NCBI GenBank assembly: GCA_026647565.1
Contig: JAPKGU010000001.1
Coordinates: forward strand, 13,458-77,457
Source: Phycisphaerales bacterium
GTDB taxonomy: Bacteria; Planctomycetota; Phycisphaerae; Phycisphaerales; UBA1924
Direction of reading: 5' to 3'
DNA length: 64,000 nt
Program-made: the position numbers and the translations under genes
Shown: one piece after another, positions 22,968 through 41,519 of the stretch
Position numbering within the stretch: the first letter of the stretch is position 1
How the letters are laid out: each line of letters begins with the position of its first letter
Notes under the pieces: model-generated
Database searches by the model: none
What the model was told of the DNA's origin: nothing
What the model saw: only the letters and a program-made list of their open reading frames with translations

Positions 22968-22972
22968 TTGCC

Positions 22973-23007: not shown

Positions 23008-23014
23008 CAGGGAA

Positions 23015-23050: not shown

Positions 23051-23232
23051 GGCCCATGTTCCGAAGGGTTCGCCAACCCGTCCGCCCATTGGACGAGTCT
23101 CTGCCGCGCGGCGTGTCCATAACCGGCTCTGGCCCACTTGGGCCTCACGGGCGCGATTTTGGCCCAAAGTCTCTCCGCGTCTCTCGTCGCCGGGTGCCCG
23201 GGTTATATGAGGTTCGTGCTCGCGAAGGCGGA

Positions 23233-23565: not shown

Positions 23566-23594
23566 GGCTCCGGACCATGCGAAGAGGAACCCCC

Positions 23595-24101
23595 ATGCCC
23601 GATGCGATTGAACGACAACTCGGCGAGCTTCAGCGGATGACCACCAGCGACTTGGTGGACCGCTACGAGGAACTCCACGGTCACGCCTGCCGTACGCGCC
23701 ACCGCGCCTATCTGATCCGCAAGATCGCGTGGCGCATCCAGGCCAACGCGGAGGGCGACCTGAGCGAGCGAGCCAAGCGGCGGGCGGCGGAACTCGCCGA
23801 CGACGCCGAGATCCGGACGATGGCTCCCCGCTCGTACACCTCGCCGCCGCAGCCCGGCGAGATCCGCACCTGCGTGCGGTCGCTCGACCCGCGCGACCGG
23901 CGCGATCCCCGGCTGCCGCCGCCCGGCTCCGCGATCGTCCGCCAGTACAAGGGGCGGACGATCCGGGTGATGGTGCTCGCGGACGGTGAAGGCTTCGAGT
24001 TCGACGGCGAGCGGTACGGCACGCTCTCGGTGATCGCCAAGAAGGTGACGGGCCAGCACATCAACGGGTACCGCTTCTTCGGATTGCGGGGTGGGCGATG
24101 A
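23595..24101 (+). CDS. DUF2924 family protein (recombinase-associated)
   Basis: The C-terminal GSAIVRQYKGRTIRVMVLADGEGFEFDGERYGTLSVIAKKVTGQHINGYRFFGL matches the DUF2924 pattern as remembered. AGAGGA lies 6 nt before the ATG at 23595. The stop overlaps the recombinase start (ATGA). Confidence 0.7.
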   Translation: MPDAIERQLGELQRMTTSDLVDRYEELHGHACRTRHRAYLIRKIAWRIQANAEGDLSERAKRRAAELADDAEIRTMAPRSYTSPPQPGEIRTCVRSLDPRDRRDPRLPPPGSAIVRQYKGRTIRVMVLADGEGFEFDGERYGTLSVIAKKVTGQHINGYRFFGLRGGR

Positions 24102-26550: not shown

Positions 26551-27442
26551 TCTCTTCCGGATGCTGCTCGTCGCGGCGGATATGCCGGGGTTACTCTTCG
26601 ACCACTCAGAAGTGTCGCGCTGGCCGACAGGGGCGCTCGACGACCTGCTGAGGTCACACTTGGTGCGTCCCGCTCAGACGGGGCTCACCGCGCCGTGTCC
26701 CCACTGCGACGACGGCCACGTCGAATCGGTGACGGTCGTCGCGCCGTCGGACGACACCGAGAAGCCGCGGTACTTCATCTCCTGCCCGGAGTCGCTCAAG
26801 GTCGAGGTCACCGAGGAGATGTGCCGTGGCTGGTCGGTTGACTTAGACGGCTTGGCAGTCACGCTCGCATCGGCACTCGCCGTCTCCACGCCGAAGCCGG
26901 TGGTTCCGGGGCGATTCTGGCGGCTCGGCCGGATGCAGCTGCGCGACACCACACGCGAGGTCGTTTTCGCGGCGCGACTTGCCGATGACGACGCGGAGGC
27001 GCTGATGCGGCACGTCAGCACTGGCGGACGTGCGGTGGTGTTCGTCCCGCACCGGGTGCCCGACCCGGGCCGATGGCCAGGTAGGGCACCCGCCGTGATC
27101 GCCATGCATGACGTGGCCGCGATGGCCGACGACAACATCGTGCTTGATCCGGAAGCGGTCCTTGAAGCGATCGACATCGCCGACAGGAACGCAGAATCTC
27201 GCGGAGAGATCCCCGAGGAGAAGCTGACCGCCAAGCGGATCGAGCGCGGGGTCCGCAAGGTCATCGAGAACATGGTGTCCGACGACGCACTCGTCCGGGC
27301 ATACGTGACTCACGGCTCCTATCGGAAGGCCGCTGGCCAACGTGAAGCCGTACGAGAAGAACCCCCGCAAGAACGAGGGCGCGATCGACGCGGTGGCCAA
27401 GAGCATCGCGGAGTTCGGGTTCCGCGTCCCGATCGTCGTTGA
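26537..27442 (+). CDS. Hypothetical protein with a CPHC...C cysteine cluster
   Basis: GGGAGG lies 6 nt before the ATG at 26537, with a 14-nt overlap with the upstream ORF. The last ~100 nt overlap the methyltransferase gene out of frame, so the true 3' end is uncertain. Confidence 0.5.
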   Translation: MTKADLFRMLLVAADMPGLLFDHSEVSRWPTGALDDLLRSHLVRPAQTGLTAPCPHCDDGHVESVTVVAPSDDTEKPRYFISCPESLKVEVTEEMCRGWSVDLDGLAVTLASALAVSTPKPVVPGRFWRLGRMQLRDTTREVVFAARLADDDAEALMRHVSTGGRAVVFVPHRVPDPGRWPGRAPAVIAMHDVAAMADDNIVLDPEAVLEAIDIADRNAESRGEIPEEKLTAKRIERGVRKVIENMVSDDALVRAYVTHGSYRKAAGQREAVREEPPQERGRDRRGGQEHRGVRVPRPDRR

Positions 27443-28640
27443 CAGCGAGGGCGTGGTGATCGCCGGGCACACGCGGCTCAAAGCCGCCGAGAAGCTAGGG
27501 CTCGCGGAGGTGCCCGTGCACATCGCCCGCGAGCTCACCGCCGACCAGGTGCGGGCGCTGCGGATCGCAGACAACAAGTTGCACGAATTGTCTTCGTGGG
27601 ACATGGAGCTGCTGCCGCTGGAACTGGCGGACCTGCGGTCGGTCGACTTCGATCTCGCGCTGCTGGGCTTCAGCGCCGAGGACCTCGCGGCGATCATGGC
27701 TCCCGCCGGCAACGAGGGGCTCGTCGACCCTGACGACGTGCCCGCGCCGCCCGACGCTGCGACGACGGTCCCCGGCGATATCTGGGTGCTGGGCAACCAC
27801 CGCCTGATGTGCGGCGACTCGTCCAAGCCGGAGGAGCTGGATCGACTGCTGGATGGCCAACCGATCCACCTCGTCAACACCGATCCGCCGTACAACGTGA
27901 AGGTCGAGCCGCGGAGCAACAACGCGATCGCGGCCGGGCTGTCGTCGTTCACCTCCACGCAGCGCAAGGACACGAGCGCCGGCGACCAGCAGTCGGCGGA
28001 CCTGCACCGCTACCCCGAGAAGTCCAAGCCGACGCACAAGAAGCTCCGGGCCAAGGACCGCCCCCTGGCCAACGACTTCGTGTCCGACCAGGAGTTCGAC
28101 CGCCTGCTGGCGGCGTGGTTCGGGAACATCGCCCGCGTGCTCATCCCCGGCGGCGGGTTCTACATCTGGGGCGGCTACGCGAACTGCGCCAACTACCCGC
28201 CGGTGCTCAATGCGATGGAGTTGTACTTCAGCCAGGCGGTGATCTGGATCAAGGAGCACCCGGTCCTGACGCGCAAGGACTTCATGGGCAACCACGAGTG
28301 GTGCTTCTACGGCTGGAAGGAAGGCGCGGCGCACCGCTTCTTCGGCCCCAACAACGTGCCGGACACGTGGAGCATCAAGAAGGTCAATCCGCAGAGCATG
28401 GTCCACCTGACGGAGAAGCCGGTGGAACTGGCCCGACGCGCGATCGAGTTCTCATCGCGTCCCGGAGAGAACGTGCTCGACCTCTTCGGCGGCAGCGGGA
28501 GCACGCTCATCGGCGCGGAGATGACGGGGCGGCGAGCGTACCTGATGGAACTCGACCCGCTCTACTGCGACGTCATCGTGCAGCGGTGGGAGAAGTTCAC
28601 GGGGCGGAAGGCGGAGCGGCTGAGCGCCGCGACCGTCTGA
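27342..28640 (+). CDS. ParB-like nuclease domain fused to an N4/N6 DNA methyltransferase (beta class)
   Basis: ParB-N motifs KPYEKNPRKN and VVIAGHTRLKAAEKLG. Motif IV DPPY precedes motif I LDLFGGSGSTLIGAE. GTG start. Confidence 0.85.
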   Translation: MKPYEKNPRKNEGAIDAVAKSIAEFGFRVPIVVDSEGVVIAGHTRLKAAEKLGLAEVPVHIARELTADQVRALRIADNKLHELSSWDMELLPLELADLRSVDFDLALLGFSAEDLAAIMAPAGNEGLVDPDDVPAPPDAATTVPGDIWVLGNHRLMCGDSSKPEELDRLLDGQPIHLVNTDPPYNVKVEPRSNNAIAAGLSSFTSTQRKDTSAGDQQSADLHRYPEKSKPTHKKLRAKDRPLANDFVSDQEFDRLLAAWFGNIARVLIPGGGFYIWGGYANCANYPPVLNAMELYFSQAVIWIKEHPVLTRKDFMGNHEWCFYGWKEGAAHRFFGPNNVPDTWSIKKVNPQSMVHLTEKPVELARRAIEFSSRPGENVLDLFGGSGSTLIGAEMTGRRAYLMELDPLYCDVIVQRWEKFTGRKAERLSAATV

Positions 28641-29798
28641 TCACTTCTCGTCGCCGGTCAGGATCTGGAGGTACTTGTGGTACGCGAACACCCGATCACG
28701 CTGCTTGCCGCTGACCTCGCGGAGGATGCCCGCGTCGGCGGCGATCTCGACGGCCTTCCGCGCCGTGGGCGCGGTGATCTTCAGCAGCTTCGCCACGCGT
28801 GCGGTGGTGACGACCGGGTGGTCGGGGAGCAGGTCGAGCAGTTGGAGCGCCGCCACCGTCGACCGCTTGTCGGAGGCCAGGCGGCGACGGTCCTTGCCGA
28901 GCAGTTCGAACAGCCCGCCAGCAACCTCGACCCCGTCGTCGGCCGCCTCGCGGACGCAGGACAGGAAGAACGCCGTCCACCCTTCCCAGTCGCCCTCGGT
29001 CCTGACCGCGGAGAGGCGGGCGTAGTACTCGCTCTGGTGCCGCTTGAACGCCAGGCTCAGGTACAGCAGCGGGCTGGGCATGAGCTTCCAGTGCTCCAGG
29101 AGCAGCGCGATCAGCAGGCGGCCGATGCGTCCGTTGCCGTCGAGGAAGGGGTGGATGGTCTCGAACTGCACGTGCGCGAGGCCGCACTTGATGAGGGGCG
29201 GGAGGGCATCGTCGCTGTGGATCCAGCGCTCCAGCCGCGTCATCGCCTCGGGGACGTCTTCCGCCGGGGGCGGCACGAACCTGGCGTTGCCCGGGCGTGT
29301 CCCGCCGATCCAGTTCTGTGTGCGGCGGATCTCGCCCGGAGCTTTGTCCGCGCCGCGCACGCCCTTCATGAGTCGTCTGTGGCTCTCGCAGAGAAGCCGA
29401 ACGCTGAGCGGCAACCCGCTGGGCTTGGCCAGTTCGGAGCGTGCGTACTTGATCGCCTCGACGTAGTTGCAGACCTCCTCGACATCGTGCGGCCTCTGGG
29501 CCTCCTTGGTCGCCTCGAACGTGACCACCTCGCGCAGCGTCGCCTGCGTGCCTTCGATCTGCGAGGTGATGACCGCCTCCTTGCGGACGAAGCCGTAGAG
29601 GAACCAGCCGGTGCTGGGGACCATCCGGCCCGCGACCTCCAGGCGGGCCAGGCCCGTGAGCGCGTCGGCGTGCAGCCGGTCGATGTCCCCGGCGGTCTGG
29701 AGGGCCGGGTCGGCCGGGGGCAAGGGGTGGGGAATGAACGCCCGGAAGGACTCCCCGGCGGCGGCGGATGTGCGGTAGGTGCCGGTCGTTCTGGGCAT
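28641..29798 (-). CDS. Class II Fic family protein (AMPylase-type) with Fic_N and C-terminal winged-helix domains
   Basis: Canonical HPFLDGNGRIGR active-site motif. N-terminal inhibitory motif TSQIEG ([ST]xxxE[GN]). C-terminal wHTH-like TARVAKLLKITAPTARKAV. Confidence 0.9.
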   Translation of the reverse strand: MPRTTGTYRTSAAAGESFRAFIPHPLPPADPALQTAGDIDRLHADALTGLARLEVAGRMVPSTGWFLYGFVRKEAVITSQIEGTQATLREVVTFEATKEAQRPHDVEEVCNYVEAIKYARSELAKPSGLPLSVRLLCESHRRLMKGVRGADKAPGEIRRTQNWIGGTRPGNARFVPPPAEDVPEAMTRLERWIHSDDALPPLIKCGLAHVQFETIHPFLDGNGRIGRLLIALLLEHWKLMPSPLLYLSLAFKRHQSEYYARLSAVRTEGDWEGWTAFFLSCVREAADDGVEVAGGLFELLGKDRRRLASDKRSTVAALQLLDLLPDHPVVTTARVAKLLKITAPTARKAVEIAADAGILREVSGKQRDRVFAYHKYLQILTGDEK

Positions 29799-29835
29799 CG
29801 CTGTGAAACGCTCCTTTCCGAGCGGCTGAGTCTAG

Positions 29836-29884
29836 GAAACGATCGTTTCTTTGTCGAGCCTGCTGCGCAACGATCGTTTCTTTG
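29836..29884. promoter_or_regulatory. Duplicated operator-like site upstream of fic: 16-nt direct repeat AACGATCGTTTCTTTG (29838-29853 and 29869-29884); first copy lies within the perfect palindrome GAAACGATCGTTTC
   Basis: Read directly. The copies are 31 nt apart (about 3 helical turns), 38-86 nt upstream of the Fic ATG. Confidence 0.4.
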
Positions 29885-29904
29885 CGCTTCCGGCGGTGCG
29901 TCAC

Positions 29905-29934
29905 CGCATAAACGCCCCGGCCGGGGGCCGGGGC
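29905..29934 (-). terminator. Hairpin terminator candidate downstream of the small minus-strand ORF
   Basis: Perfect 9-bp stem GCCCCGGCC / GGCCGGGGC with a 3-nt loop. On the minus strand it is followed by GTTTAT, a short T-tract. Confidence 0.4.
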
Positions 29935-29963
29935 GGGCTGGCGATCGGGCATGGGCACCCGCT

Positions 29964-30080
29964 TCAGGGCTCGTCGATCTGCGGGAGCGGGCCGTCGGTC
30001 GCTTCGTCCCATTCGAGGGCGTAGCGCTCGGCGATGTCCTCAAGGTCGTGGTCGGTCAGGTACTCGGCGGTCTTCGCCAC
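29964..30080 (-). CDS. Possible small acidic protein (38 aa from GTG; ORF open to 30182)
   Basis: AKTAEYLTDHDLEDIAERYALEWDEATDGPLPQIDEP, with a hairpin just downstream. It overlaps the 5' end of the + strand ORF 30034, so only one of the two is likely real here. Confidence 0.25.
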   Translation of the reverse strand: MAKTAEYLTDHDLEDIAERYALEWDEATDGPLPQIDEP

Positions 30081-30129
30081 CGGCTTCCAGATGATCTGGG
30101 AGGAGGCGTCGTCGTGGGTCGCCAAGCGG

Positions 30130-30714
30130 ATGCTGGAGATCCAGGGGCTGTTCGATGACGGGCTCGATGTTGAAGCCGCCAAGAAGGCGGTGGACCAGCA
30201 GCTCGAGTCCCGACTGGTCGAGCTGGAGAACGCCGCTCAGCAGTCCGTGACGGCCCGCGAGGGGCAGCGCGAACAGCAGCGCCGCGATGCGGCGGCGATG
30301 CACGAAGCGACGCTGGCCGCGATCGGCCTGGACTTCGAGAACGCGCAGGAGGCCCTGCGCAAGGATACGGAAGCGGGGCTCGCCGAGTCACAAGCGGCGC
30401 TCGACGCCGCCAAGCAGAAGCTCGCGGCCGCGATCGAGGAGGCCCGGAAGAAGCGCGAGGCCGCCGATGCCGAGAAGGGACCTGGGCGTCCCCAACGGGA
30501 CCTCCTCGCGGACTTCGAGGAGCGTCTGTCGGGCCTCGGTGCGGCCATCGGCAAGGGCATCAGTGTCACTGGGACGTTCAGCGCCGCTGCTGTCTCGGGC
30601 TTGGGCACGGGTGGCGACGCCGCCGAGCGCACCGCCAGCGCCACCGAGCAGACCGCCCGCAACACCAAGCGTCTGCTGGATGCCAGCGTCGACAACGGAC
30701 TGCGGTTTGCCTGA
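30130..30714 (+). CDS. Coiled-coil protein, possibly a truncated phage tape-measure or scaffold-like fragment
   Basis: Ala/Glu/Gln-rich coiled coil ending GTFSAAAVSGLGTGGDAAERTASATEQTARNTKRLLD. This resembles tape-measure C-terminal segments from memory only. The start is ambiguous (30034, 30091 or 30130). Confidence 0.45.
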   Translation: MLEIQGLFDDGLDVEAAKKAVDQQLESRLVELENAAQQSVTAREGQREQQRRDAAAMHEATLAAIGLDFENAQEALRKDTEAGLAESQAALDAAKQKLAAAIEEARKKREAADAEKGPGRPQRDLLADFEERLSGLGAAIGKGISVTGTFSAAAVSGLGTGGDAAERTASATEQTARNTKRLLDASVDNGLRFA

Positions 30715-30744
30715 CCCCTTCACACAGAAAGGAGTTCATCGCTC

Positions 30745-31563
30745 GTGCCCGTCGAGGTGTTTGAGAAGTTCGAGAGCCGCCGCTCCACCAAGGCGAACCA
30801 AGCCTCGCAGTCGTCTGCGGAGCTCGGCTACATCGTGCGCGGCACCGCCGACGACCTCGCGGCCCGCACCGCAGCGCAAGCGGCCTCTCCGGCGACCTAC
30901 GACACGCTCCCGCGCCAGACCATCCAGATCGAGCCCATCGGACCGCAGCTGTGGGACGTCACCGTCCGCTACAGTCAGAACGCCTCCACCGGCACGAGCA
31001 CCCCGAGCGAGTCCTCGTTCACGTTCGAGACCGGCGGCGGGACGCAGCACATCACCCAGAGCCTGCAGACCGTGCAGCGCCGGCCCGCACCAGGCACCAC
31101 CGCGCCCGACTTCGGCGGCGCGATCGGCGTCACCTCCGACGGCGTCGAGGGCGTCGACATCACCGTCCCGGTCTACCAGTTCTCCGAGACGCACTACTTC
31201 ACGGACGCGCAGGTCACCGCCTCGTACAAGGGCGCGATCTTCTCCTGCACGGGCAAGACCAACGCCGGCTCGTTCCGCGGGTTCGCGGCTGGCGAGGTGC
31301 TGTTTCTCGGTGCGACAGGCTCCAAACGCGGCGACGGCCCGGATGACGACTGGGAGATCACGTTTCGGTTCGCGGCGAGCCCAAACCAGACCAACCTGAC
31401 CGTCGGTCCCGTCACCGGGATCAACAAGAAGGGGTGGGAGTACCTGTGGGTCCGCTACGCCGACGCCGAGGACTCGGGGTCTGGCGCGATCATCAAGAAA
31501 CCCATCGCCGCGTACGTCGAGCGCGTGTACGACCAGGCCAACTTCGGAGCACTCGGAATCTAA
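30745..31563 (+). CDS. Hypothetical protein, phage-structural-looking (beta-rich, no repeats)
   Basis: GTG with AAGGAG 10 nt upstream and strong third-position GC. No family recognised. Confidence 0.55.
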   Translation: MPVEVFEKFESRRSTKANQASQSSAELGYIVRGTADDLAARTAAQAASPATYDTLPRQTIQIEPIGPQLWDVTVRYSQNASTGTSTPSESSFTFETGGGTQHITQSLQTVQRRPAPGTTAPDFGGAIGVTSDGVEGVDITVPVYQFSETHYFTDAQVTASYKGAIFSCTGKTNAGSFRGFAAGEVLFLGATGSKRGDGPDDDWEITFRFAASPNQTNLTVGPVTGINKKGWEYLWVRYADAEDSGSGAIIKKPIAAYVERVYDQANFGALGI

Positions 31564-31566
31564 AGC

Positions 31567-32607
31567 ATGTCGGACGACCTCCACAAAGTTCGCTCCGGCC
31601 AGCCGCTCCGCATCCCCGCGGGCGCGTATAACGCGTTCGTCGATGCGGCGGTCGATCTGCGCACGCGACAGGGGCGGGGCCAAGCCGTCGCCGGTCCTCT
31701 CGTCGAATCCGCGCAGCGTGGCATCGGCGTGGTGCTGGTCCGCAACGACTCGGACGAACTGATCGAGCCGCACCACGCGCTGGCGATCACCGGTGTGCTG
31801 GTCGAGCCCGGTGAGGACGACCAGGAGCGGACCTTCCACAGTCGCACGCCCCTGACGGGCGACATGGCGAACGAGGAGTCCGACACGCTCGCCCTCGCGG
31901 TGGCGCTCCAGCCCATCAAACCCAATGCCCTCGGCCCCTGCGTGCTCACCGGCGTGACGACCGCCCGGGTCTACATCACCAACGAGACCGACACCACCTG
32001 CGAGCTCGCGGCAGACGAGACGGTCCTGGCGAGCACGCCCATGGGCGGCATCCCGATCCTGTGGAAGGAGGTTGGCACCGGCGAGAAGTGGGCGGTGATC
32101 GAGCTCGGCCGCCCCTCGCCCGGACGCATCACCGCGATCCTGGGCGCGGCCCAGCCGATCCCCACCGAGCGCAACCGCTGGCGCTACCCGTGGGTCGAGG
32201 CCCAGATCGACGGCAACCCCGGCAGCCCGGACTATCTGCGGTACGTGCCGGTCGAGAACGGCCTGACCTCGCAGGCCCCCAGCGGCGGCGAGGACCCCAC
32301 GCGCCTGGCGATCAACCGCTTCGAGGCGCACCACATGGACGACTCCGAGCCCGGCTCCGGGTTCGGTGGCCTGCTCGGGCTGGGCCCGGTGTGCGAGCTC
32401 CCGGGCGTGCTGCCCAAGTGCCCGCCCGCGCGGTCGCTCAAGCCCAAGCTCGTGCCGATCCCCGAGGGCGTGTGCGTGCAGATGACCTGTGAGCGCAACA
32501 GCCGGGGCAAGCCCGTGTGGGTCTTCGAGGCCATGAGCCTCATCGAGATCGCCGACCCCGCCGACGAGGACCGCAAGTTCAACCTCTACATCGGAGGTGC
32601 CGAATGA
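31567..32607 (+). CDS. Hypothetical protein, phage-structural-looking
   Basis: ATG 3 nt after the upstream stop. Its stop overlaps the next start (ATGA). No family recognised. Confidence 0.55.
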   Translation: MSDDLHKVRSGQPLRIPAGAYNAFVDAAVDLRTRQGRGQAVAGPLVESAQRGIGVVLVRNDSDELIEPHHALAITGVLVEPGEDDQERTFHSRTPLTGDMANEESDTLALAVALQPIKPNALGPCVLTGVTTARVYITNETDTTCELAADETVLASTPMGGIPILWKEVGTGEKWAVIELGRPSPGRITAILGAAQPIPTERNRWRYPWVEAQIDGNPGSPDYLRYVPVENGLTSQAPSGGEDPTRLAINRFEAHHMDDSEPGSGFGGLLGLGPVCELPGVLPKCPPARSLKPKLVPIPEGVCVQMTCERNSRGKPVWVFEAMSLIEIADPADEDRKFNLYIGGAE

Positions 32608-33194
32608 CAACCACTCCGACCACCCCAACGCCGCTGGAGGCCAAGCGTGCCAAAGAACGGGCCAAGTACCTCGCGCTGGCCAGCAAGCCCGGCTCGACCT
32701 ACGGGTCGACCAACCACGGCCGGGCGGCGATCCCGCTCATCCAGGAGAGCAAGCCGAGGTTCGTGGTGGACTTCGGTTGCGGCCGCAACGACCTTGTGCG
32801 CGAGTTGCGGCGTCTTGGCATCGACGGGCTGGGCGTCGACTTTGCCTTCCCCGAAGCGGACCTCGTGCGCCCCATGCACGCGACCGCCCTGCAGGCGGGC
32901 ATCGCCGATGTGGTGACGAGCTTCGACGCCCTCGAGCACCTCCTGCCCGAGGACGTGGATCTCACGCTCGCGGAGATGCGCCGCGTCGCGGTGCCGCGTG
33001 GGCGGTTCATCTTCTCGATCTGCACGCGGCCGAGCACGACCACCGTCGCCGGCGAGGGTCTGCACCCGACGGTGCGTCCGCTGGACTGGTGGCTGGAGCG
33101 CATCGCCCGCGTCGGCGTCGCTGGCAGGCCCCAGGCGGGGTCCCGCTACATCGTCGGGCGGTTCAAGAGTGATGGGGGGTGCTGCGGTGCGTGA
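32604..33194 (+). CDS. Class I SAM-dependent methyltransferase
   Basis: Motif I VVDFGCGRN, post-I LGVDF and motif II/III region VVTSFDALEHL. GGAGG precedes the ATG. Confidence 0.75.
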   Translation: MTTTPTTPTPLEAKRAKERAKYLALASKPGSTYGSTNHGRAAIPLIQESKPRFVVDFGCGRNDLVRELRRLGIDGLGVDFAFPEADLVRPMHATALQAGIADVVTSFDALEHLLPEDVDLTLAEMRRVAVPRGRFIFSICTRPSTTTVAGEGLHPTVRPLDWWLERIARVGVAGRPQAGSRYIVGRFKSDGGCCGA

Positions 33195-34101
33195 GAACCA
33201 GTCCGACATCGCGGCGCTGCAGGCCGGGCTCAAGGCGCGTAAGCCCGCCCGTGATGGCCTGCGCCTCTACACCGCTCCGCCGACGTTCGAGTCGGTGTCG
33301 CTGAGCGGGTTCTACCGAGGCCGGTCCGCGTTCCTGATGCTCTCCGGGCCCTCCCTCAAGCAGATCGACCTGTCGCTGCTGGACGCCCGCGGCATCGTCA
33401 CGATGGCCGTCAACAACGCCTGGTCCGTGCGGCGTCCGACGCTCTGGACCTGCGTGGACGACCCCGGCCGCTTCATCGATGTGGGCTGGAAGGACCCGGG
33501 CATCCTGAAGTTCGTGCCGACCTGCATGTGGGACAAGCGGCTGAAGGTGATGAACCCCGACGGCACGCTCCGCAACAGCGCCTTCAAGGTCCACCAGATG
33601 CCCGGCGTGCTGTTCTTCCGACGCAGCGATCACTTCGACCACGTGCGATTCCTCACCGGGGACACGATCTCATGGGGCAACGACGCGAAGAACCCCGACT
33701 CGCTGGGCATCACCGGCAAGCGCTCGGTCATGCTCGTCGCCCTGCGCCTGCTCCACTACCTCGGCTTCTCGACGGTGTACCTGCTCGGCTGCGACTTCAA
33801 GATGGACGCGGAGCGCAAATACGCCTTCGACGAGCACCGAGCGCAGAACGCGATCCGGCACAACAACGTGCTGTATGACTCGCTGTCGAAGAGATTCGAG
33901 GCCCTCAAGCCGCACTTCGAGAAGCACCGATTCCGCGTCGTCAACTGCTCGCCCGGAAGCGCCCTGGAGGTCTTCGAGAAGATGGCCTTTGAGGACGCGG
34001 TGACGGCAGCCGCTTCCGAGTGCGGCAAGCCCATCCGCACCGACGGGTGGTACGAGCCCAATCCCAAGGCGAGCGCCCCGCAACAGGAGGCCGCACGATG
34101 A
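33172..34101 (+). CDS. MptE/DUF115 (Maf-like) putative glycosyltransferase
   Basis: FLMLSGPSLKQIDLSLL...VTMAVNNAW and YLLGCDFKMD resemble the GPSL/N.../G-D motifs of DUF115 motility-accessory-factor-type proteins (motif-level only). Start at 33172 or GTG 33187. Confidence 0.5.
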   Translation: MGGAAVRENQSDIAALQAGLKARKPARDGLRLYTAPPTFESVSLSGFYRGRSAFLMLSGPSLKQIDLSLLDARGIVTMAVNNAWSVRRPTLWTCVDDPGRFIDVGWKDPGILKFVPTCMWDKRLKVMNPDGTLRNSAFKVHQMPGVLFFRRSDHFDHVRFLTGDTISWGNDAKNPDSLGITGKRSVMLVALRLLHYLGFSTVYLLGCDFKMDAERKYAFDEHRAQNAIRHNNVLYDSLSKRFEALKPHFEKHRFRVVNCSPGSALEVFEKMAFEDAVTAAASECGKPIRTDGWYEPNPKASAPQQEAAR

Positions 34102-35606
34102 GCGACGGCCCCACTCGGTACTACCTCTACATCCCCGTCTGGGCGACGGGGCGTGCTCCGCAAGGCGGCGGGTCGAGCAACTACTCGACGCCGTCGGGCT
34201 CGACGCCCGAGAGCACGTACTCGACGCCGACCAGCACGCCGAGCATGCCGCCGAGCTACTCGACGACCGGCGACGTGATCTACACGACCGGGCCGGGCGG
34301 CACGCCCACGCTCACGTTCTACACCACCGGCGCGTTCACGAGCAACACGCCGGGGACGACGCACACGCCGTCGAGCAGCGGGGCGATGTCATCCAGCGGG
34401 ATGACCACCGACTCGTCGCAGACGCCGACGAGTTCGCAGACCCCGTCGAGCACGGGCTCATCGGGCATGAGCAGTTCCGGCGGCGGGAGTTCTTCGGGTG
34501 CATCGAGCGGTATGTCGTCGGGCGCGAGTTCGGGGGCATCGTCGGGCATGTCCACTGGTGGCAGTTCCGGTATGTCCTCGGGCATGTCGTCTGGCGGGTC
34601 GTCCGGTGGTTCATCGGGAGGCGGGTCGTCGGGTGGCGGTGGATCGAGTGGCGGCGGCAGCGGCCCCGGTGGGTCGGGTCCAGGCGGGTCCGGGCCTGGC
34701 GGCTCGGGGCCGGGTGGTTCTGGCCCGGGCGGCAGTGGTCCCGGTGGCTCCGGCCCCGGTTCCAACTGCGTGCTCGCGGGCACGCCCGTGGTGCTGGCGG
34801 ACGGCTCGACCAAGCCGGTCGAGGCGCTCCAGCCGGGCGATCGTGTCGCGGCGCTCGACGTGGCGGGCCTGGACCGCGACGTGCCGTGGCGAGCCCAGTA
34901 CCAGTGGCTCCGTCCCTGGGCCGAAGCGGCGCTCACGCCCGTCACCGGCACCGTCGGCAGCGTGAAACTCGGCACGCACGAGGGCTTCATCACCATCAAC
35001 GGACGCCTGCGCCTCACGCCCGAGCACCCGGTGCTGCTCAAACGCAACGATGAGATCGGCTTCGCGTCGGCGGAGTTCGTGCAGGTCGGCGATGCGCTCG
35101 TGCGCCAGGACCTAAGCGAGGAACTCGTCGAGTCAGTTGATCGGTCGGGCGAGCGCGTGACGACAGTGGCCGTGCATGTGCCCGGACTCAACGTGTTCCT
35201 GGTGGGCGGCGTTGGGGGGGTGTGGATTCACAACGACATGCCCGCCACGCAGCAGAGCGGCTCGGGCTCGTCGTCGGGTTCAGGGTCGAGTTCTGGATCT
35301 GGGTCCGGCTCCTCGAGCGGGAGCGGCTCCGGCAGCGGCAAGTCCAGCGGCTCGTCCATGTCGAGCTCGGGGTCCAGTTCCGGGTCGAGTTCCGGCAGTT
35401 CGTCGGGCTCATCGAGCGGGAGTGACAGCGGCTCCGGCCCGCCCGGCTCCGGATCGGGCTCCGGCAGCGCCCAGCAGTCAGTGGCGCTGGGCGAAGGCGC
35501 ATCGTCCTTCATCGAGGGTGGCATGGAGGGTGTGCCTCCGGCGAAGTGGCAGCAGAGCGGCGTAGCAAGTCTCAGCAGCGGCATCGAAGAGGAGGCAAAG
35601 GCGTGA
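34098..35606 (+). CDS. Ser/Thr/Pro- and Ser/Gly-rich protein with an internal Hint (bacterial intein-like) domain
   Basis: ATGA overlap with the upstream gene. The Hint N-terminus CVLAGTPVVLADGSTKPVEALQPGDRV starts at Cys codon 34767. Block B is TPEH. The C-terminus is VGGVWIHN (Asn codon 35232-35234) followed by Asp. The flanks are almost pure S/G/T/P. Confidence 0.8.
   Translation: MSDGPTRYYLYIPVWATGRAPQGGGSSNYSTPSGSTPESTYSTPTSTPSMPPSYSTTGDVIYTTGPGGTPTLTFYTTGAFTSNTPGTTHTPSSSGAMSSSGMTTDSSQTPTSSQTPSSTGSSGMSSSGGGSSSGASSGMSSGASSGASSGMSTGGSSGMSSGMSSGGSSGGSSGGGSSGGGGSSGGGSGPGGSGPGGSGPGGSGPGGSGPGGSGPGGSGPGSNCVLAGTPVVLADGSTKPVEALQPGDRVAALDVAGLDRDVPWRAQYQWLRPWAEAALTPVTGTVGSVKLGTHEGFITINGRLRLTPEHPVLLKRNDEIGFASAEFVQVGDALVRQDLSEELVESVDRSGERVTTVAVHVPGLNVFLVGGVGGVWIHNDMPATQQSGSGSSSGSGSSSGSGSGSSSGSGSGSGKSSGSSMSSSGSSSGSSSGSSSGSSSGSDSGSGPPGSGSGSGSAQQSVALGEGASSFIEGGMEGVPPAKWQQSGVASLSSGIEEEAKA
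34653..34757 (+). repeat. Seven tandem 15-nt units encoding (GGSGP)x7 immediately upstream of the Hint domain
   Basis: Codon by codon, every unit encodes GGSGP, but the units differ at synonymous positions (e.g. ggc ggc agc ggc ccc / ggt ggg tcg ggt cca / ggc ggg tcc ggg cct). Confidence 0.85.
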
Positions 35607-36226
35607 TTCCGAAGGTCATCTACACGGCGGACCTCAGCGGGACTCCCGACAAGCAGCGGCTCACGGCCTGGCGGCACGCGTGGCAAACCATGCATCCCGA
35701 GTGGGACGTGGTGACGCTCACGCTGGACACCAAGCCGCCGATCATGAACTACGACCAGTGGCAGCAGACCTTCGGGCTCAGCGAGCCCGCAGCCTCGGCG
35801 GCACGGCTGAACCTGCTTCGCTACGAGGTGCTGGCCCGCGAGGGCGGAGTGTTTGTCGATCCCGATCGCCTGCCGCTGCGACCGCTCGATGAGCTCGTCA
35901 CTGGCGTCGGTGCCTTCTGCTCCACGATCGCCAGCCACGGCGCGAGCCGCCCGCACATGCTCTCGCCATCGGTGCTCGGCGCGACGCGGAACCATCCGAT
36001 GCTCTGGCACGCCATCCGCGACCTGCCGCACTCGGTGCTGGTCTATCGCGGCGTGTGGGACCAGAGCGGGCCGGGGTTCCTCACCCGCGTCGTCCGCGAC
36101 CACGGACACTTCCGCGACGTGGTGCCGTTTCACTGGGCGCTCTTCGAACAGACCGAGGACGCCGCGAAGGCCCACGGCGGGGCATTCGCATTCGTGCAGC
36201 CCAAGCCCGCGGAGGTGGTGGCGTGA
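35603..36226 (+). CDS. Glycosyltransferase with DXD motif (GT32 / Gly_transf_sug-like)
   Basis: IPKVIYT N-terminus, LLRYEVLAREGGVFVDPD (DXD region). GTGA overlap with the upstream gene. Confidence 0.65.
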   Translation: MIPKVIYTADLSGTPDKQRLTAWRHAWQTMHPEWDVVTLTLDTKPPIMNYDQWQQTFGLSEPAASAARLNLLRYEVLAREGGVFVDPDRLPLRPLDELVTGVGAFCSTIASHGASRPHMLSPSVLGATRNHPMLWHAIRDLPHSVLVYRGVWDQSGPGFLTRVVRDHGHFRDVVPFHWALFEQTEDAAKAHGGAFAFVQPKPAEVVA

Positions 36227-36228
36227 GC

Positions 36229-36906
36229 ATGGCCGCACGCACCACCTCGATCCCGCGTGTCCTGCACCAGATCTGGCTGGGCAAGGGCGAGATGCCCCTC
36301 AATCAGCGGCGCTGGCGGCGGCGCTTCGCCGAGATGAACCCGCACTGGGAGATGCGGCTGTGGACGGACGACAACCTGCCGCCGATCCTGAACCGCAACG
36401 CCTGGGACGCGTGCGGCAACGTCGGCGGGACGCCCGGCTGCGTGATGCGGTCGGATATCCTGCGGCTTGAGATCCTGGCCCGGTTCGGAGGGGTCTATCT
36501 CGACACCGACGTGAAGCCCGTGCGGCCGCTGGACGAGATGTGCCCGCCCGAGGTGGTCGCGTGGGCGGCGTGCGAGCAACTCGACATCGTCACCAATGCC
36601 GCGATGGGCTTCCCGCCAAACCACCCGGCGATGTGGCACGTGGTGGCGATGATTGAAGAGTCATTCTTCGAGCGCCGGTACGTCGGTGATCAGGCGGGGC
36701 CAGGACTGATCGCCCGGGTCGTGACGCAGTACGACGACGTGGCACTCTACCCGCCGGCGTACTTCCACCCGACGGTTAGGGAGTCGAAGTCAAACCCGGA
36801 CGCGCCCGTGTTCTTGAAGGCGGCACATCTCTTCGCGGGGACGTGGGTGGAAGAGAACCGGCAACGCTACTCAAGAATGTGGCACGCGAACGAATCACCT
36901 CGCTGA
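36229..36906 (+). CDS. Glycosyltransferase with DXD motif (GT32 / Gly_transf_sug-like), paralogue of the preceding gene
   Basis: [11 protein letters not shown] and [21 protein letters not shown]. The start (GTG 36223 or ATG 36229) overlaps or abuts the upstream stop. The 3' end overlaps the copA 3' end by 12 nt. Confidence 0.7.
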
Positions 36907-39381
36907 TCGCGTCCGCAACCTCAGGCTGTTGAGCACCACGCTGACGCTGCTGAACGCCATCGCCGCGCTCGCGATGATCGGCGAGAGCAGCCAACCCGTG
37001 AACGGGAACAGCACGCCCGCCGCGATTGGAATGCCGACGACGTTGTAGATGAACGCCCAGAAGAGGTTCTGCTTTATGGTGCGCATCGTCGCGTGCGAGA
37101 GGGCGATGGCCTCCGGCACGGTTCGCAGGTCGCCCCGCATCAGCGTGATGTCCGCGGACTCCATCGCAACGTCGGTGCCGGTTCCGACCGCGAGGCCCAC
37201 ATCGGCCTGCGCGAGCGCGGGGGCATCGTTGATGCCGTCGCCGACCATTCCCACGACGTGCCCCTCGGCCTGAAGGGCTTTGACCTTGTCCGCCTTGTCC
37301 TTGGGCAGTACCTCCGCGAACACCAGGTCCACGCCGACCTGGGAGGCGACCGCTTCGGCCGTCCGCTGATTGTCGCCGGTCATCATCACCACGCGGAGCC
37401 CCAGCGCGTGCATCGTGGCGATGGCGTCCTTCGACTCTGGCCGCACCGTGTCCGCGACCGCAATGATCCCCGCTTCGCGGCCGTCGACGGCAACGTACAT
37501 GGGCGTGCGCCCCAGCGCCGCCAGACCCGCGGCCTTCTCCGCCAGCGCGGACTGGATGCTGCGCTGAGCCAGCAACGCCGCCTTGCCGACCAACACCGCG
37601 TGCCTATCCACCTGGGCTTCGACGCCGTGCCCAACCACAGCCTGGAAGCCGAGTGGCTCGGTGAGCGACAGTCCGCGTACTGTGGCCTCGCGGACGATCG
37701 CCGCGGCGAGCGGGTGCTCGCTGTGCTGCTCGGCCGATGCAGCCAGTCGAAGCACCTCGCGCTCATCGAGAAGGCCCGCAGGGGCCGGGATGATGTCCGT
37801 CACGGCGGGCTTGCCGTGCGTGATGGTTCCCGTTTTGTCGAGCACGATGGCGGTGAGCTTGTGGGCGGTCTCTAGGGCCTCGCCGCCCTTGATGAGAATG
37901 CCCTTCTCCGCGCCACGGCCCGTGCCGACCATGATCGCCGTCGGTGTTGCCAGCCCCAGCGCGCACGGGCAGGCGATGATGAGCACCGAGACGGCCGTGA
38001 CCAGCGCCATGCTGAGCCGCGAGTCCACCGGCGAGGTGAACCACCAGGCTACGAACGTCACGAGGGCGATCGCGATGACGATGGGGACAAACACGCCACT
38101 GATCCTGTCGGCCAAGCGGGCGATTGGGGCCTTGCTCCCCTGGGCCTCCTGCACGAGCCGCACGATCTGCTGGAGCGCCGAGTCCGCTCCCACCTTGGTC
38201 GCCACCAGTCGCAGCGCGCCGGTCGTGTTCATCGTCGCACCGAAGACGCTATCGCCGGCCGCCTTCTCCACCGGGACACTCTCGCCGGTGAGCATCGACT
38301 CATCCACGGCGGACTGTCCACTCTCAACTTTGCCGTCCACGGGGATCTTCTCACCGGGACGCACCAGCACACGATCACCAACGACGACAGATTCGATTGG
38401 CACGTCCTGCTCGGTGCCGTTGCGCACGATACGAGCGGTCCGAGCCTGCATGCCGATGAGACGCTTGATGGCCGCACTCGTCCGGCCCGTGGCCCGGGCC
38501 TCGAAGTACTTGCCCAGCAGGATCAGCACGATGATGACCGCGGCGGCCTCGTAGTACACGGGCACCATGACCATGTCGCCCATGGTGCCTTCGGCGTGTG
38601 CGGTATGAGCCACGGCTCCGCTCACTCCAGCGAAGAATCCTGGCCAAATCGTTGCGGCGAGCGAATAGAGGTACGCCGCGCCGGTGCCCATCGCTACGAG
38701 CGTGTCCATGTTCGCGCTGAAGTGCCGCAGACCCTTCCATGCGGAGCGAAAGAACTGCCACCCGCACCAGAACATGACAGGCGTCGTCAGGGCGAGCTGG
38801 AGCCAGTTGATCCACGATACGTTGAACGCCTCGATCTCTCCGTGCGACATGGCGATGACCAGCACCGGCAGCGCGAGCACCGTGCCGACGATCATCTTGG
38901 TGAGCAGTCGACGCGTCTCGGTCTCGCCGACGTTCATGTGGGCCGAGTGATCCTCACGCTCAGCACCGCGGCTCATCGTGTGCCCGGCGTGCTCCCCCGT
39001 TGTCTGCGCCGCGAGCATGGCCGCGTGGTCGTGGCCGGCGTGACCGTGCGCTGGATTCACCGCGTTGTGCCGTGCCTTGGGTACGACGGCCTTGTAACCG
39101 ATGTCGTCTACCGCCTTCGCCAGCTTCTCCGGCCCGACTGCGGCTGGGTCGTACTTCACCGTCGCCACCTTGGTGGCGAAGTTTACGCTCGCGGAGGTGA
39201 CGCCGGGCTGCTTCGCCAGGCGCTTCTCGATGCGCGAAGCGCACGAGGCGCACGTCATGCCTTCGATAGGCAAATCGCAGCGCTCAATCGCGGGTTGTGG
39301 AGGGTACAATTGCCCGGAAGAGTGCGAGGTATCGCTGCCGTGCGAGTGCGCACGGTCATCGCCAAGATTCGTCGTGGTCAT
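36895..39381 (-). CDS. copA: Copper-translocating P1B-type ATPase
   Basis: HMA domain [16 protein letters not shown] motif [17 protein letters not shown] phosphorylation site and [10 protein letters not shown]. His-rich linkers. Confidence 0.9.
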
Positions 39382-39423: not shown

Positions 39424-39876
39424 TCAGCGTGCAATCCTTCCGACCAGTTCGATCAGTTCTTCGATCATCGCGTCCTGCTGCTGTTTGTCACCGTGCATCG
39501 CGCGGCTCGCGCAATGCCCGAGGTGGTTCCGCAGCAGGTTCTTCGCCACGGCTCGCAGGGACTCCTGCACCGCCGCGCACTGCTGGATGATGTCGGCGCA
39601 GTAGCGGTCCTCCTGGATCATCGCGGCGATGCCGCGGACTTGGCCCTCAATGCGTTTGAGGTGCTTGAGGTTGGCGGCCTTAAGCCCAGAGTCGACACCC
39701 GCGGCGTGGGCTCCGGGGCCTACGCCTTCATGTGCGCCTGCCCTTGCGCTTGTCGCCGCGCAGCCGCAGCACGCCGACGGCGTGGCCAGCGCGTCCGAAG
39801 CGGTGGAAGTGCCGTGGCCGCTGAGTGACGGACTGAGAGTCTCGATGCGTGGTTCGTTGTTCTTGCGGTTCTTCAT
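39424..39876 (-). CDS. csoR: CsoR/RcnR family metal-sensing repressor with ~60-aa N-terminal extension
   Basis: LKRIEGQVRGIAAMIQEDRYCADIIQQCAAVQESL...HLGHC matches the CsoR (DUF156) pattern. GAAGGA precedes the ATG at 39876. Confidence 0.8.
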   Translation of the reverse strand: MKNRKNNEPRIETLSPSLSGHGTSTASDALATPSACCGCAATSARAGAHEGVGPGAHAAGVDSGLKAANLKHLKRIEGQVRGIAAMIQEDRYCADIIQQCAAVQESLRAVAKNLLRNHLGHCASRAMHGDKQQQDAMIEELIELVGRIAR

Positions 39877-39881
39877 GGCTG

Positions 39882-41519
39882 ATGTTCCTTCGGACGAACT
39901 CCTGCGAAAGCGTCGGCGAAACCCCGGACGGCAGCGTCCAGTGCGTCCTCGACGGCGACCTCTACAACCGCGCGGACGTCCGCAAATTCGTCACCTCCCG
40001 CACCCGCGACCTCCGCACCGACTCCAACGCCGAACTCATCGCCCACCTCTGGCAGGCCAAGGGACGCGACATGCTCATGTCCCTCCGCGGCGGCTACGCC
40101 CTCGCCATCCTCGACCGCGCCAACAGCACCCTCTTCGTCGCCCGCGACGCCCTCGGCCACCGCCCCCTGTTCGTCTACGAGGGACACGAGGGCTGGGCGG
40201 TCGGCTCCGACCTGCGCGCCGTCCTCGCCTGGCCCGCCACCCGCCCCGCTCTCGAAACCCGCGCCCTCGACCACTTCCTCGCCTACCACATCCCCCCCCA
40301 GCCCCTCACGCTCTTCCGGAACGTCCGGAAAATCCTCCCGGCCGGCTGGCTGGAAATCCGGAACGGCCGCGTCGAGGAAGGCCGGTACTGGGAACCGACC
40401 TACTACGACCCCGCCGGTCAGAATCCCGACGAGGTCGCCCAGCACGCGTTCAGCTACCTGTTCGAAAGCGTCAAGGCCCACACGCGCGACCTGGACCGAC
40501 CGACCGTCTGCCTCGAGGGCGACCCGTACAGCGCCGTCCTCGCCGGGCTCGCGTCGCTGGCGAAGCGCGGGCGATTCACGACGTTTTCGCTCAAACACGC
40601 CTGGATCCCCGCCGAAACCCGGAGCGGAACCGCCGCTGCGGTGGCGCGGTTCGGATGCCCGCACCACGAGGAGGAGGTTGCGGGGTCCATCGCCGAGCTG
40701 CTCGACGCCATCGCGGACGTGAACATCGAGGGGCTCCCGATCTCCCGGATGGCGCAGGCGATGCTGTTCGCGGGAAGCGCTTCGGCGTCCTCGCCGGGGG
40801 TGCTGACGGCCGCGGGCGGAGAGCTCTACTGGCTGGCGGGGCGCCGGCCGGTGCCGCCGCCGCTCTCCACGCTCGGCGCCTGGCGGCAGGTGAAGGAGTC
40901 GGGCGGGTCTTCGGCCGGGCTTTCCGTCGCGCTGCGGGCGGAATTCGAGGCGCGGATGACGGTGCCGACGGCGGAGCGTGCGTCGCTCGCGGGGCGCCCC
41001 GGGATCCCGGCGCTCGACGCGGTGACGGAGGTGATGAAGCACGCGGCAACGCCGGGAGAGGCGTCGGCGGCGGCCTATGTGGACGCCGCGTGCTTCCTCC
41101 CCGACCTCTTCATCAGCCCGATCCAGGCCGCCTGTCGCGCCCGTGGATTCCCGGCCCGTTCGCCGCTGGCGGATCCGAGCGCGGTCCAGCTGCTGGTCCC
41201 GGTGGTGCACTCGCTCGCCGGGCAGAATCCCCTGCAGGGGCTCCGCCGGGTCTTCGAGTCGCTCGTCCCGGAAGACGCGTTCTGGAATGCGCGCTGGTCG
41301 CGCCCGGAGGACTGGGAGACCGCGACCTGGCGCGAGCTCGGCGAGCGCGCCTGCGACTCGCTCACCGAGCGGCGCTCCCTCGAGCGCGGCCTCTTCGAAG
41401 GCTCGCACGTCCGCCGGCTGGTCGAGGACCAGCGCGCCGGCCGGGAGCGCAACGAGCGCAAGCTGCTGCTGCTGTTCGCCCTTGAACTCTGGATGCGGAG
41501 CGGCATCGACCCCCGCTGA
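39882..41519 (+). CDS. Asparagine synthase-like protein lacking the N-terminal Cys nucleophile and with a degenerate PP-loop (possible pseudoenzyme or truncated gene)
   Basis: Aligns with the intact AsnB at 46862 from ...TPDGSVQCVLDGDLYN onward. The MCG N-terminus is absent. SGGIDS is replaced by EGDPYS (TVCLEGDPYSAVLAGLAS versus VGCYLSGGIDSTIVSGLAS). Confidence 0.6.
   Translation: MFLRTNSCESVGETPDGSVQCVLDGDLYNRADVRKFVTSRTRDLRTDSNAELIAHLWQAKGRDMLMSLRGGYALAILDRANSTLFVARDALGHRPLFVYEGHEGWAVGSDLRAVLAWPATRPALETRALDHFLAYHIPPQPLTLFRNVRKILPAGWLEIRNGRVEEGRYWEPTYYDPAGQNPDEVAQHAFSYLFESVKAHTRDLDRPTVCLEGDPYSAVLAGLASLAKRGRFTTFSLKHAWIPAETRSGTAAAVARFGCPHHEEEVAGSIAELLDAIADVNIEGLPISRMAQAMLFAGSASASSPGVLTAAGGELYWLAGRRPVPPPLSTLGAWRQVKESGGSSAGLSVALRAEFEARMTVPTAERASLAGRPGIPALDAVTEVMKHAATPGEASAAAYVDAACFLPDLFISPIQAACRARGFPARSPLADPSAVQLLVPVVHSLAGQNPLQGLRRVFESLVPEDAFWNARWSRPEDWETATWRELGERACDSLTERRSLERGLFEGSHVRRLVEDQRAGRERNERKLLLLFALELWMRSGIDPR

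Follow-up and report, generated by a model that had tools for sequence, protein, structure and literature searches.

A tail-operon module of Phycisphaerales phages that joins a predicted sialyltransferase-fold enzyme to a mucin-like, Hint-bearing protein

Here we analyse a run of five coupled genes at 32604–36906 of the window, by which we mean the whole 64,000-nucleotide (nt) stretch of contig JAPKGU010000001.1 from a Phycisphaerales bacterium. These genes close the late (tail) operon of a temperate siphovirus family whose hosts are Phycisphaerales. The constant part of the run is a gene trio encoding a class I S-adenosylmethionine (SAM)-dependent methyltransferase, a DUF115/GT42-like transferase with a predicted sialyltransferase fold (hereafter the transferase) and a mucin-like Ser/Gly-rich protein, which here contains a putative type A bacterial intein-like (BIL) Hint domain; two GT32-type glycosyltransferase genes, GT32a and GT32b, follow the trio in some lineages. 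We tentatively propose, with confidence just short of evenly balanced, that these genes make up a dedicated phage system that would O-glycosylate the phage's own mucin-like tail protein, whose precursor would be cut or spliced by the BIL domain.

The distal end of a phage tail operon

Related loci came from two scans. A scan of viral contigs with the transferase gave 62 loci, and a scan of a genome collection with a profile of its distant relatives gave 80 genomic loci, all those kept being close relatives from Phycisphaerales assemblies; together they are labelled L001–L142. The tape-measure gene, the genes g30745 and g31567, and the methyltransferase, transferase and Ser/Gly genes have the same order and spacing in the 80 genomic loci and in those of the 62 viral loci that reach far enough, and the core trio is present in every related locus. 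The locus in CP159477.1, the genome of a cultured Phycisphaerales strain, had no g31567 match. In intact copies the module is preceded on its 5′ side by genes for a head-protease fusion, a head decoration protein, a major tail protein and a 664-amino-acid (aa) tape-measure protein; the product of L001 5547–7541 matches tape-measure PHROGs (1.4e-49). The earlier note on this DNA had described a single cassette of five genes. Five coupled genes are indeed there, but they resolve into a universal trio and a GT32 pair confined to two clades, and instead of being a free-standing unit they form the distal end of the phage tail operon, lying here in a deleted prophage.

The overlaps that had been reported at 32604, 33187–33194, 34098, 35603 and 36223 all lie where they were placed. 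The five start/stop junctions at 32604–36226 were read directly from the DNA, and the five open reading frames (ORFs) are intact and on the same (+) strand (Table 1). Overlaps of 4 nt are an ordinary feature of bacterial operons, and one copy alone therefore says little. Among the related loci, the 4-nt overlap between the transferase and the next gene is kept in 118 of 123 (ATGA in 113, GTGA in 5), and the joint between the Ser/Gly gene and GT32a is ATGA or GTGA in 45 of 45. Four loci carry an extra ~760–780 nt between the transferase and Ser/Gly genes, which breaks the 4-nt overlap; such inserts lie at L056 10930–11718, with a 262-aa ORF inside, and at L134 ~1950–2680.

The window copy belongs to a defective prophage and is cut upstream of these genes, inside the tape-measure gene. 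In blastn comparisons of the window with seven loci, homology to the phage family begins each time exactly at 30072, the position of the deletion junction. On viral contigs that carry the transferase module, homologues of the 25495 product lie 20–28 kb 5′ of it; in the window the distance is 7.7 kb, a difference that argues for a prophage deletion of ~20 kb. On these comparisons, the region from tRNA-Met (22893–22968) to the copper P-type ATPase gene copA is one prophage with a ~20-kb internal deletion. The deletion took the packaging, head and most tail genes, so the window prophage cannot make virions; the seven ORFs at 30745–36906 are intact and 87–99% identical to those of complete prophages.

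Table 1 Features of the prophage, the module and the downstream host cluster in the window
Feature	Position	Strand	Details
Prophage left arm	22893–30071		
tRNA-Met	22893–22968		left arm
DUF2924 gene	23577–24101		left arm
Large serine recombinase	24098–25549		left arm
phrog_37634 gene	25495–26550		left arm
ParB-DNA methylase	27342–28640		left arm
Fic	28641–29798	−	left arm
Tape-measure 3′ remnant	30072–30714	+	~residues 442–664 of the intact 664-aa protein (tblastn)
g30745	30745–31563	+	272 aa, after the tape-measure gene; in all loci, L001–L142, 58–99% identity
g31567	31567–32607	+	346 aa, tail-fibre/receptor-binding-like by AF2 model; coupled to the methyltransferase by ATGA 32604
Junction, upstream gene/methyltransferase	32604–32607	+	ATGA, sequence read
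Methyltransferase	32604–33194	+	class I SAM-dependent, 196 aa
SAM-binding motif	32766–32783	+	VDFGCG
Junction, methyltransferase/transferase	33172 or 33187, against 33192–33194	+	in-frame ATG 33172 or GTG 33187; TGA 33192–33194
Transferase	33172–34101	+	DUF115/GT42-like, 309 aa; start maybe GTG 33187
Transferase motif SGPSL	33343–33357	+	
Transferase motif GCDF	33787–33798	+	
Transferase motif YAFD	33820–33831	+	
Junction, transferase/Ser/Gly gene	34098–34101	+	ATGA; AGGAG 34085–34089 just 5′
Ser/Gly gene	34098–35606	+	mucin-like Ser/Gly(/Thr/Pro)-rich protein, 502 aa
N-motif	34116–34142	+	RYYLYIPVW
Linker 1	34167–34766	+	
Hint domain	34767–35234	+	putative type A BIL, 156 aa; profile and conserved residues
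Hint Cys1	34767–34769	+	Cys224
Hint TPEH	35016–35027	+	residues 307–310
Hint His-Asn (Asn379)	35229–35234	+	
Linker 2	35235–35465	+	
C-terminal tail with FIEGGMEGVPPAKW	35508–35549	+	
Junction, Ser/Gly gene/GT32a	35603–35606	+	GTGA
GT32a	35603–36226	+	207 aa, GT-A fold region; PF04488 25.6 bits against a cut-off of 23
GT32a DXD motif	35855–35866	+	VDPD
Junction, GT32a/GT32b	36223–36226	+	GTGA
GT32b	36223–36906	+	227 aa; PF04488 39 bits
GT32b DXD motif	36499–36510	+	LDTD
Asparagine-synthase-like amidotransferase	39849–41519		host cluster
GT4 glycosyltransferase	43562–44701		host cluster
Asparagine-synthase-like amidotransferase	46862–48691		host cluster
GT4 glycosyltransferase	51004–52131		host cluster
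GT4 glycosyltransferase	53801–54793	−	host cluster
Initiating sugar transferase	59547–61463		host cluster; Bac_transf

Predicted enzymes and a mucin-like partner

The transferase matches phrog_4603 'alpha-2,3-sialyltransferase' (1.5e-11). Its AlphaFold2 (AF2) model, made from 36 homologues, has a predicted local distance difference test score (pLDDT) of 87, and the best Foldseek matches of this model in the PDB were Cst-II and Cst-I (1RO8, 2X61, 2P2V; probability 0.91–0.99, template modelling (TM) score 0.36–0.44), followed by mammalian sialyltransferases (probability 0.8–0.99 and TM score 0.30–0.44 overall). HMMER aligned the SGPSL and GCDF...YAFD motifs with GNGPSL and GIDF...YAFD of Cst-II (1RO7) and of a lipooligosaccharide sialyltransferase (9C08). 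Together, the fold matches and aligned motifs assign the transferase, as far as a model can, to the sialyltransferase-fold enzymes of the DUF115/GT42 superfamily. The label 'Maf/DUF115-like' given to it earlier holds for the fold, but the protein is not a true Maf: it is a single 309-aa domain, stays below the PF01973 cut-off and lacks flagellin-type recognition domains. Characterised Maf proteins are two to three times longer and have extra N- and C-terminal domains. The gene sits in a phage tail operon with no flagellar genes. PF01973 was touched by 11 of 20 diverse relatives of the transferase, all below the cut-off (best E 9.7e-7).

The methyltransferase scores above cut-off against Methyltransf_23 (38.2 bits) and Methyltransf_11 (36 bits) and matches phrog_24759 'methyltransferase' (3.4e-11); a PDB sequence search with it gave no specific match, and the methyl acceptor was not narrowed. 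GT32b passes PF12919 (TcdA/TcdB; 32.7 against 23.6 bits) as well as PF04488, and its PDB sequence matches were Legionella SetA (1.4e-6), an Och1-type alpha-1,6-mannosyltransferase (1.5e-6) and TcdA (2e-4), whereas the PDB sequence search with GT32a gave no specific match. The protein assignments first made from the letters alone were thus right in kind by Pfam, PHROG and fold searches: with a Cst-II/Cst-I fold on one side and PF04488 passed twice on the other, profile and structure searches give the flanking ORFs a glycosyltransferase fold or family.

Beyond the close relatives, searching exhaustively with HMMER put the transferase family at 2,142 cluster representatives with E ≤ 0.001, 576 of which reach E ≤ 1e-30. 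Among the 149 best representatives, at least 13 are fused to a methyltransferase domain like that of the window, in both orders, and one is a transferase–GT32–GT9 fusion; these fusions indicate that the methyltransferase, transferase and GT32 enzymes act in one pathway. To look at distant context, we took the contigs of 11 representatives that are 40–54% identical to the window transferase. An ORF with a long Ser/Thr/Gly-rich stretch lies within two genes of the transferase in 6 of 10 independent neighbourhoods (L167, L168, L169, L170/L171, L173 and L174/L175); three other contigs have no clear Ser-rich neighbour and two are too short to judge. In the Phycisphaerales phage and host loci, a 60-aa window with at least 65% S+T+G turned up in 1 of 1,466 distinct ORFs outside this family, a background that comes from one lineage and is only indicative for the distant neighbourhoods. 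The L174/L175 neighbourhood belongs to a remote branch of this phage lineage, in which the transferase (46% identical) comes directly after a g31567 homologue, without a separate methyltransferase gene, and is followed by a Ser/Gly-rich, Hint-bearing gene with the N-motif. The g31567 homologues in L174 have Gly/Ser-rich inserts of their own.

The 34098 product is strongly biased in composition: residues 24–130 are 27% S, 24% T, 15% G and 11% P, residues 131–223 are 46% G and 37% S, and residues 380–456 are 55% S and 30% G. The earlier note had stressed an STP-rich N-terminal stretch of 130 residues, which describes the window copy well but is clade-specific; what persists is Ser/Gly richness, some relatives having ~47% S and 48% G and no T or P. 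An N-motif of the RYYLYIPVW type occurs in 123 of 143 sources. Linker lengths vary among close relatives (151–219 residues), which suggests, from the sequences, repeat expansion and contraction. A 15-nt tandem repeat at 34661–34760 (6.7 copies) codes for (GSGPG)n immediately N-terminal to the Hint Cys, and 27 consecutive glycines occur in the L056 relative. Many contigs stop within the Ser/Gly gene (L007, L009, L019, L022, L028, L031 and others), and a protein search with the first 113 residues returned only 13 short N-terminal fragments (P0372–P0384) and no new architectures. Such low-complexity repeats disrupt both assembly and gene calling, which leaves the module under-represented among database proteins.

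Between the two low-complexity linkers lies the Hint domain, for which the first Pfam signal was Hint_2, below threshold. In the PDB, a profile built from it matches 2LWY ('bacterial intein-like domain'; E 5.9e-6) best, and the mini-inteins that come next score no better than E 2e-3. Across 36 distinct homologues the domain spans 153–156 residues and Cys1 is the only conserved Cys; Asn(−1), Cys1, TPEH, HN and Asp(+1) are strictly conserved in 35 of them, and Cys224 and TPEH are invariant in a 10-sequence alignment. The domain starts at ..SN|C.. and ends at ..VW[IV]HN|D[ML]P. Type A BILs are defined by a Cys1 thioester, a C-terminal His-Asn, the lack of a +1 nucleophile and insertion in a variable region, and they yield mostly cleavage, with occasional splicing by aminolysis (PMC4031507; PMC5874633). 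Judged by its sequence, the window domain has every one of the features that define the type. A canonical (class 1) intein is excluded by the +1 Asp in all homologues and by the low-complexity, variable flanks. In L119 (Ser/Gly gene 8921–10330), alone among 37 distinct sequences, HH replaces the terminal HN, and C-terminal cleavage may be impaired in this natural variant.

The related loci fall into three architecture classes, or clades. Class A, that of the window, has Hint, a C-terminal tail of the form ...FIEGGMEGVPPAKW... and both GT32 genes; class B has Hint and a tail ending ...GGTGT[FY]SI and lacks both GT32 genes; class C (L135–L140) lacks Hint and has an FIEGG-type tail and a GT32 pair 60–68% identical to that of the window. 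The class C protein is otherwise collinear: it has the same N-motif and a Ser/Thr/Pro stretch that is recognisably homologous, Hint being replaced by a small beta-rich segment, and on sequence it behaves like an empty-site allele. The gene-neighbourhood check proposed at the outset found the Ser/Gly protein always with the methyltransferase and the DUF115-like transferase. The suggested pairing of a Hint-domain gene with GT32 fared less evenly: it holds in clade A, but clade B has no GT32 and clade C no Hint. The FIEGG-type tail (FIEGGMEGVPPAKW) accompanies GT32a in 45 of 45 loci and occurs in none of 48 loci without GT32a, counting complete genes with known downstream sequence and scoring three point variants of the motif as present. 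In the degenerate locus L142 the Ser/Gly gene is truncated and tail-less, GT32a is missing, and a stretch resembling GT32b lies further 3′. Clade C is the more distant from the window by transferase identity (71–74%, against 79–81% for clade B), and its GT32 genes (60–68%) have diverged in step with its core genes (65–74%). By this comparison the GT32 pair seems to have long belonged to the module and to have been lost from clade B, and does not look like recent cargo.

A proposed glycosylation route and its rivals

In the route we tentatively favour, cytoplasmic enzymes would O-glycosylate Ser/Thr residues of the mucin-like protein during late expression and virion assembly. The DUF115/GT42-like enzyme would probably use an acidic sugar activated with CMP or a nucleoside diphosphate, the methyltransferase would modify that sugar or its product, and the GT32 pair, where present, would add hexoses, perhaps recruited by the C-terminal FIEGGMEGVPPAKW motif. 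The RYYLYIPVW N-motif would dock the Ser/Gly protein onto the tail tip. In the Hint domain, Cys1 would form a thioester and the terminal Asn would cyclise, and the precursor would give an N-fragment (residues 1–223) and a C-fragment (380–502) or, less often, be spliced without a +1 nucleophile.

Several points weigh against this route. The transferase scores below the Pfam cut-offs for PF01973 (17.1 against 34.6 bits) and PF06002 (17.7 against 25 bits), and its fold match is modest (TM score 0.36–0.44, E 5e-3). The catalytic His of Cst-II ('YIGHSKN') has no conserved partner, the family keeping N231-N232 instead. Neither the window nor the phage loci showed genes for nonulosonate biosynthesis, though no systematic search for them was made, and a tblastn search for the transferase in 50,697 deposited phage genomes gave no match, which leaves no isolate or curated annotation to lean on. 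The glycan, the donor and the acceptor are all inferred, and the Ser/Gly protein is placed in the virion by gene position only; it could also be an unmodified flexible linker. Linkage of adjacent DNA could by itself explain the association of the tail motif with GT32. Finally, the GT32 pair closes the prophage next to its attachment side, occupying a slot that holds variable cargo, such as restriction and abortive-infection genes, in clade B, and such a slot is a typical position of lysogenic-conversion genes.

The first rival concerns the window copy alone and is compatible with the proposed route for the family: as a decaying fragment of a defective prophage, the cassette may have no present function for the cell, and we regard this as an evenly balanced question. 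With ~20 kb missing and the tape-measure gene cut at 30072, the operon has lost its upstream late promoter context; a consensus scan of the + strand at 29700–37300, which does not cover planctomycete promoter types, found no promoter-like site; and a shorter, similar remnant stands at the same copA site in CP054186.1 (L069). Against decay speak the seven intact ORFs and their high identity to those of complete prophages.

In the main rival to the proposed route, which we consider unlikely, the enzymes would have other targets: the host envelope or its polysaccharide (as lysogenic conversion, or with the receptor destroyed to block superinfection) or another virion protein such as the g31567 product. 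The Ser/Gly protein would then be an unmodified flexible appendage. The GT32 pair does sit at the extreme prophage end by copA, where clade B has its variable cargo, but GT32 starts overlap the Ser/Gly stop in all 45 loci, unlike typical morons, and the methyltransferase and transferase lie inside the late structural operon, with no promoter- or terminator-like site of their own, and are conserved in every family member. GT32 enzymes such as Och1 act on glycans, and a host exopolysaccharide cluster lies just downstream (39849–61463); reading the enzyme sequences, we noticed no membrane or export feature, although no formal prediction was run. The ATGA that couples the methyltransferase to g31567 and the Gly/Ser-rich inserts in the L174 homologues favour g31567 as the acceptor, but Ser/Thr/Gly-rich neighbours recur near distant relatives in unrelated phages.

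We think it improbable that Hint acts after modification, such that a tail glyco-appendage would first be densely O-glycosylated and Hint would then cleave or ligate it, removing an enzyme-recruiting C-tag or joining the glycopeptide covalently to the virion. A Hedgehog-like role, in which the Cys224 thioester would be resolved by a sugar, a lipid or a tail-protein lysine, the N-fragment would be joined to that partner and the enzymes would make or modify it, draws on the strict conservation of the Hint residues, on the constant position of the domain between two disordered linkers and on transfer to a hydroxyl being established Hint chemistry (PMC5874633), but is highly improbable because clade C keeps the N- and C-motifs and the enzymes and does without Hint; moreover, there is no sterol- or adduct-recognition-like region, the nearest solved relative is a type A BIL, which only cleaves or splices, and one relative has HH for HN.

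The proposed O-glycosylation route assembles parts of known kinds, namely DUF115/GT42-fold transferases, GT32 enzymes, class I methyltransferases and type A BILs. A precedent comes from Maf-type enzymes, which attach nonulosonic acids to Ser/Thr by O-linkage (PMC11339370, PMC4065374). By structure search, the window enzyme is of the same fold class as Maf and GT42 (Cst-I, Cst-II), with which it shares the GPSL nucleotide-sugar motif and G-x-DF...YAFD, and the likeness to Maf extends to cytoplasmic Ser/Thr protein glycosylation and to Maf genes often lying near methyltransferases in glycosylation islands. Unlike them, it is a bare 309-aa domain, below both Pfam cut-offs and without the Cst-II His; it is encoded by a phage in a tail operon, and its presumed acceptor is a disordered Ser/Gly-rich protein and not flagellin. 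With type A BILs the Hint domain shares the Hint fold, N-terminal Cys, T-x-x-H, His-Asn, absence of a +1 nucleophile, insertion in a variable region and an insert-free allele. Known BILs, by contrast, lie in bacterial secreted or surface proteins (FhaB-like, MafB-type), whereas here both flanks are low-complexity Ser/Gly and the −1 Asn and +1 Asp are invariant. In the literature searched we found no precedent for a BIL domain in a phage tail-module protein.

Glycosyltransferases of mycobacteriophages decorate capsid and tail-tube subunits (secondary mentions in PMC11256854). Common to that case and our proposal is a temperate siphovirus whose own cytoplasmic glycosyltransferases are presumed to modify its structural proteins. 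The families differ, being DUF115/GT42-like, GT32 and methyltransferase here; the enzyme genes are interleaved with the presumed acceptor gene where the tail operon ends; and that acceptor would be a mucin-like protein of its own, in place of an extended capsid or tail-tube subunit. Gram-positive Ser-rich repeat adhesins (GspB/Fap1-type) have dedicated cytoplasmic glycosyltransferases in one operon. By analogy, the module resembles those loci in having a Ser-rich disordered protein and several cytoplasmic glycosyltransferases in one operon; it differs in its unrelated enzymes, its phage context and its BIL domain and in having no accessory Sec genes and no wall anchor.

What is new is the combination of parts, the BIL in a phage tail context and the size of the unannotated transferase family, together with natural variants with and without Hint and with and without GT32, which make the model directly testable. 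If the route is true, phage self-glycosylation would reach beyond actinobacteriophages, with sialyltransferase-fold and methyltransferase chemistry and a separate mucin-like acceptor. On the improbable reading in which Hint acts after modification, a widespread family of planctomycete phages would carry the first phage 'glyco-fibre' matured by Hint, with the first natural role of a BIL in virus assembly. BIL domains were reportedly the subject of Amitai 2003 and Dassa 2004; their role has been unclear since 2003, and the phage module would offer a concrete setting, with a natural insert-free allele for comparison. A function for the transferase family (2,142 representatives, often methyltransferase-fused and unannotated) would annotate many phage and bacterial genes. 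To our knowledge, almost nothing has been reported on phage attachment to Phycisphaerae.

Prophage and host surroundings

Of the two genes between the tape-measure remnant and the trio, g30745 has no match in Pfam, PHROGs, NCBIfam or the PDB, its profile included, and its role is read from position only. For the AF2 model of the g31567 product (pLDDT 76), the PDB matches are phi29 gp12 and decoration proteins of phages that form trimers, and the BFVD matches include Mtd N-terminal-domain, tail-fibre-like and preneck-appendage proteins (E down to 1e-6); on this model it is best read as a tail fibre or receptor-binding protein. A gp27-like tail hub was dropped for it, the fold matches being trimeric decoration, Mtd-N and fibre-type domains.

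In the left arm, 27342–28640 is a fusion of a ParB N-domain with an N6-N4 DNA methylase, and 28641–29798 is a convergent Fic/DOC protein with a helix-turn-helix domain that adjoins the deletion junction. The junction (30071/30072) also cuts a minus-strand ORF at 29964–30182, whose left part resembles the end of a small gene beside Fic. The idea that the recombinase/ParB/Fic block is a foreign insert was dropped, its genes sharing viral contigs with the tail module.

At the other end, GT32b (+) and copA (−) converge and share their last 12 nt (36895–36906), and homology to phage contigs without the copA flank stops at ~36892 (blastn). The copA flank also adjoins the module in L038, L065, L068, L069, L077, L091 and L107, which marks it as a recurrent integration side of the phage family. 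A domesticated, conserved remnant beside copA was considered and dropped, most copA-adjacent copies being full prophages. The L069 remnant (CP054186.1), at the same copA site and shorter than that of the window, begins inside g31567. The variable, defence-type cargo of clade B after the gap was seen at L017 12699–17870 and 3′ of the Ser/Gly gene in L020, L039 and L057, and cargo of the same type stands after the GT32 pair in L001 13918–20890 (clade A). Examples are type I restriction-modification genes (HsdM, HsdS), an AbiEii-like AAA ATPase, a McrBC-like pair (DUF2357/PDDEXK_7), a DNA methylase and a STAND NTPase.

Outside the prophage, a PSCyt1/PSCyt2/PSD1 protein followed by a DUF1501 protein at 18863–22710 forms a pair typical of Planctomycetota; this pair, and the origin of all 80 genomic relatives from Phycisphaerales, identify the host as a planctomycete. 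Downstream of the prophage, a host polysaccharide biosynthesis cluster occupies 39849–61463. Up to four copies of the module, from different clades, occur per Phycisphaerales genome, as in CP054186.1 (L069, L078, L102, L116) and OZ243106.1 (L125, L137), and these hosts have therefore been poly-lysogenised by this phage family.

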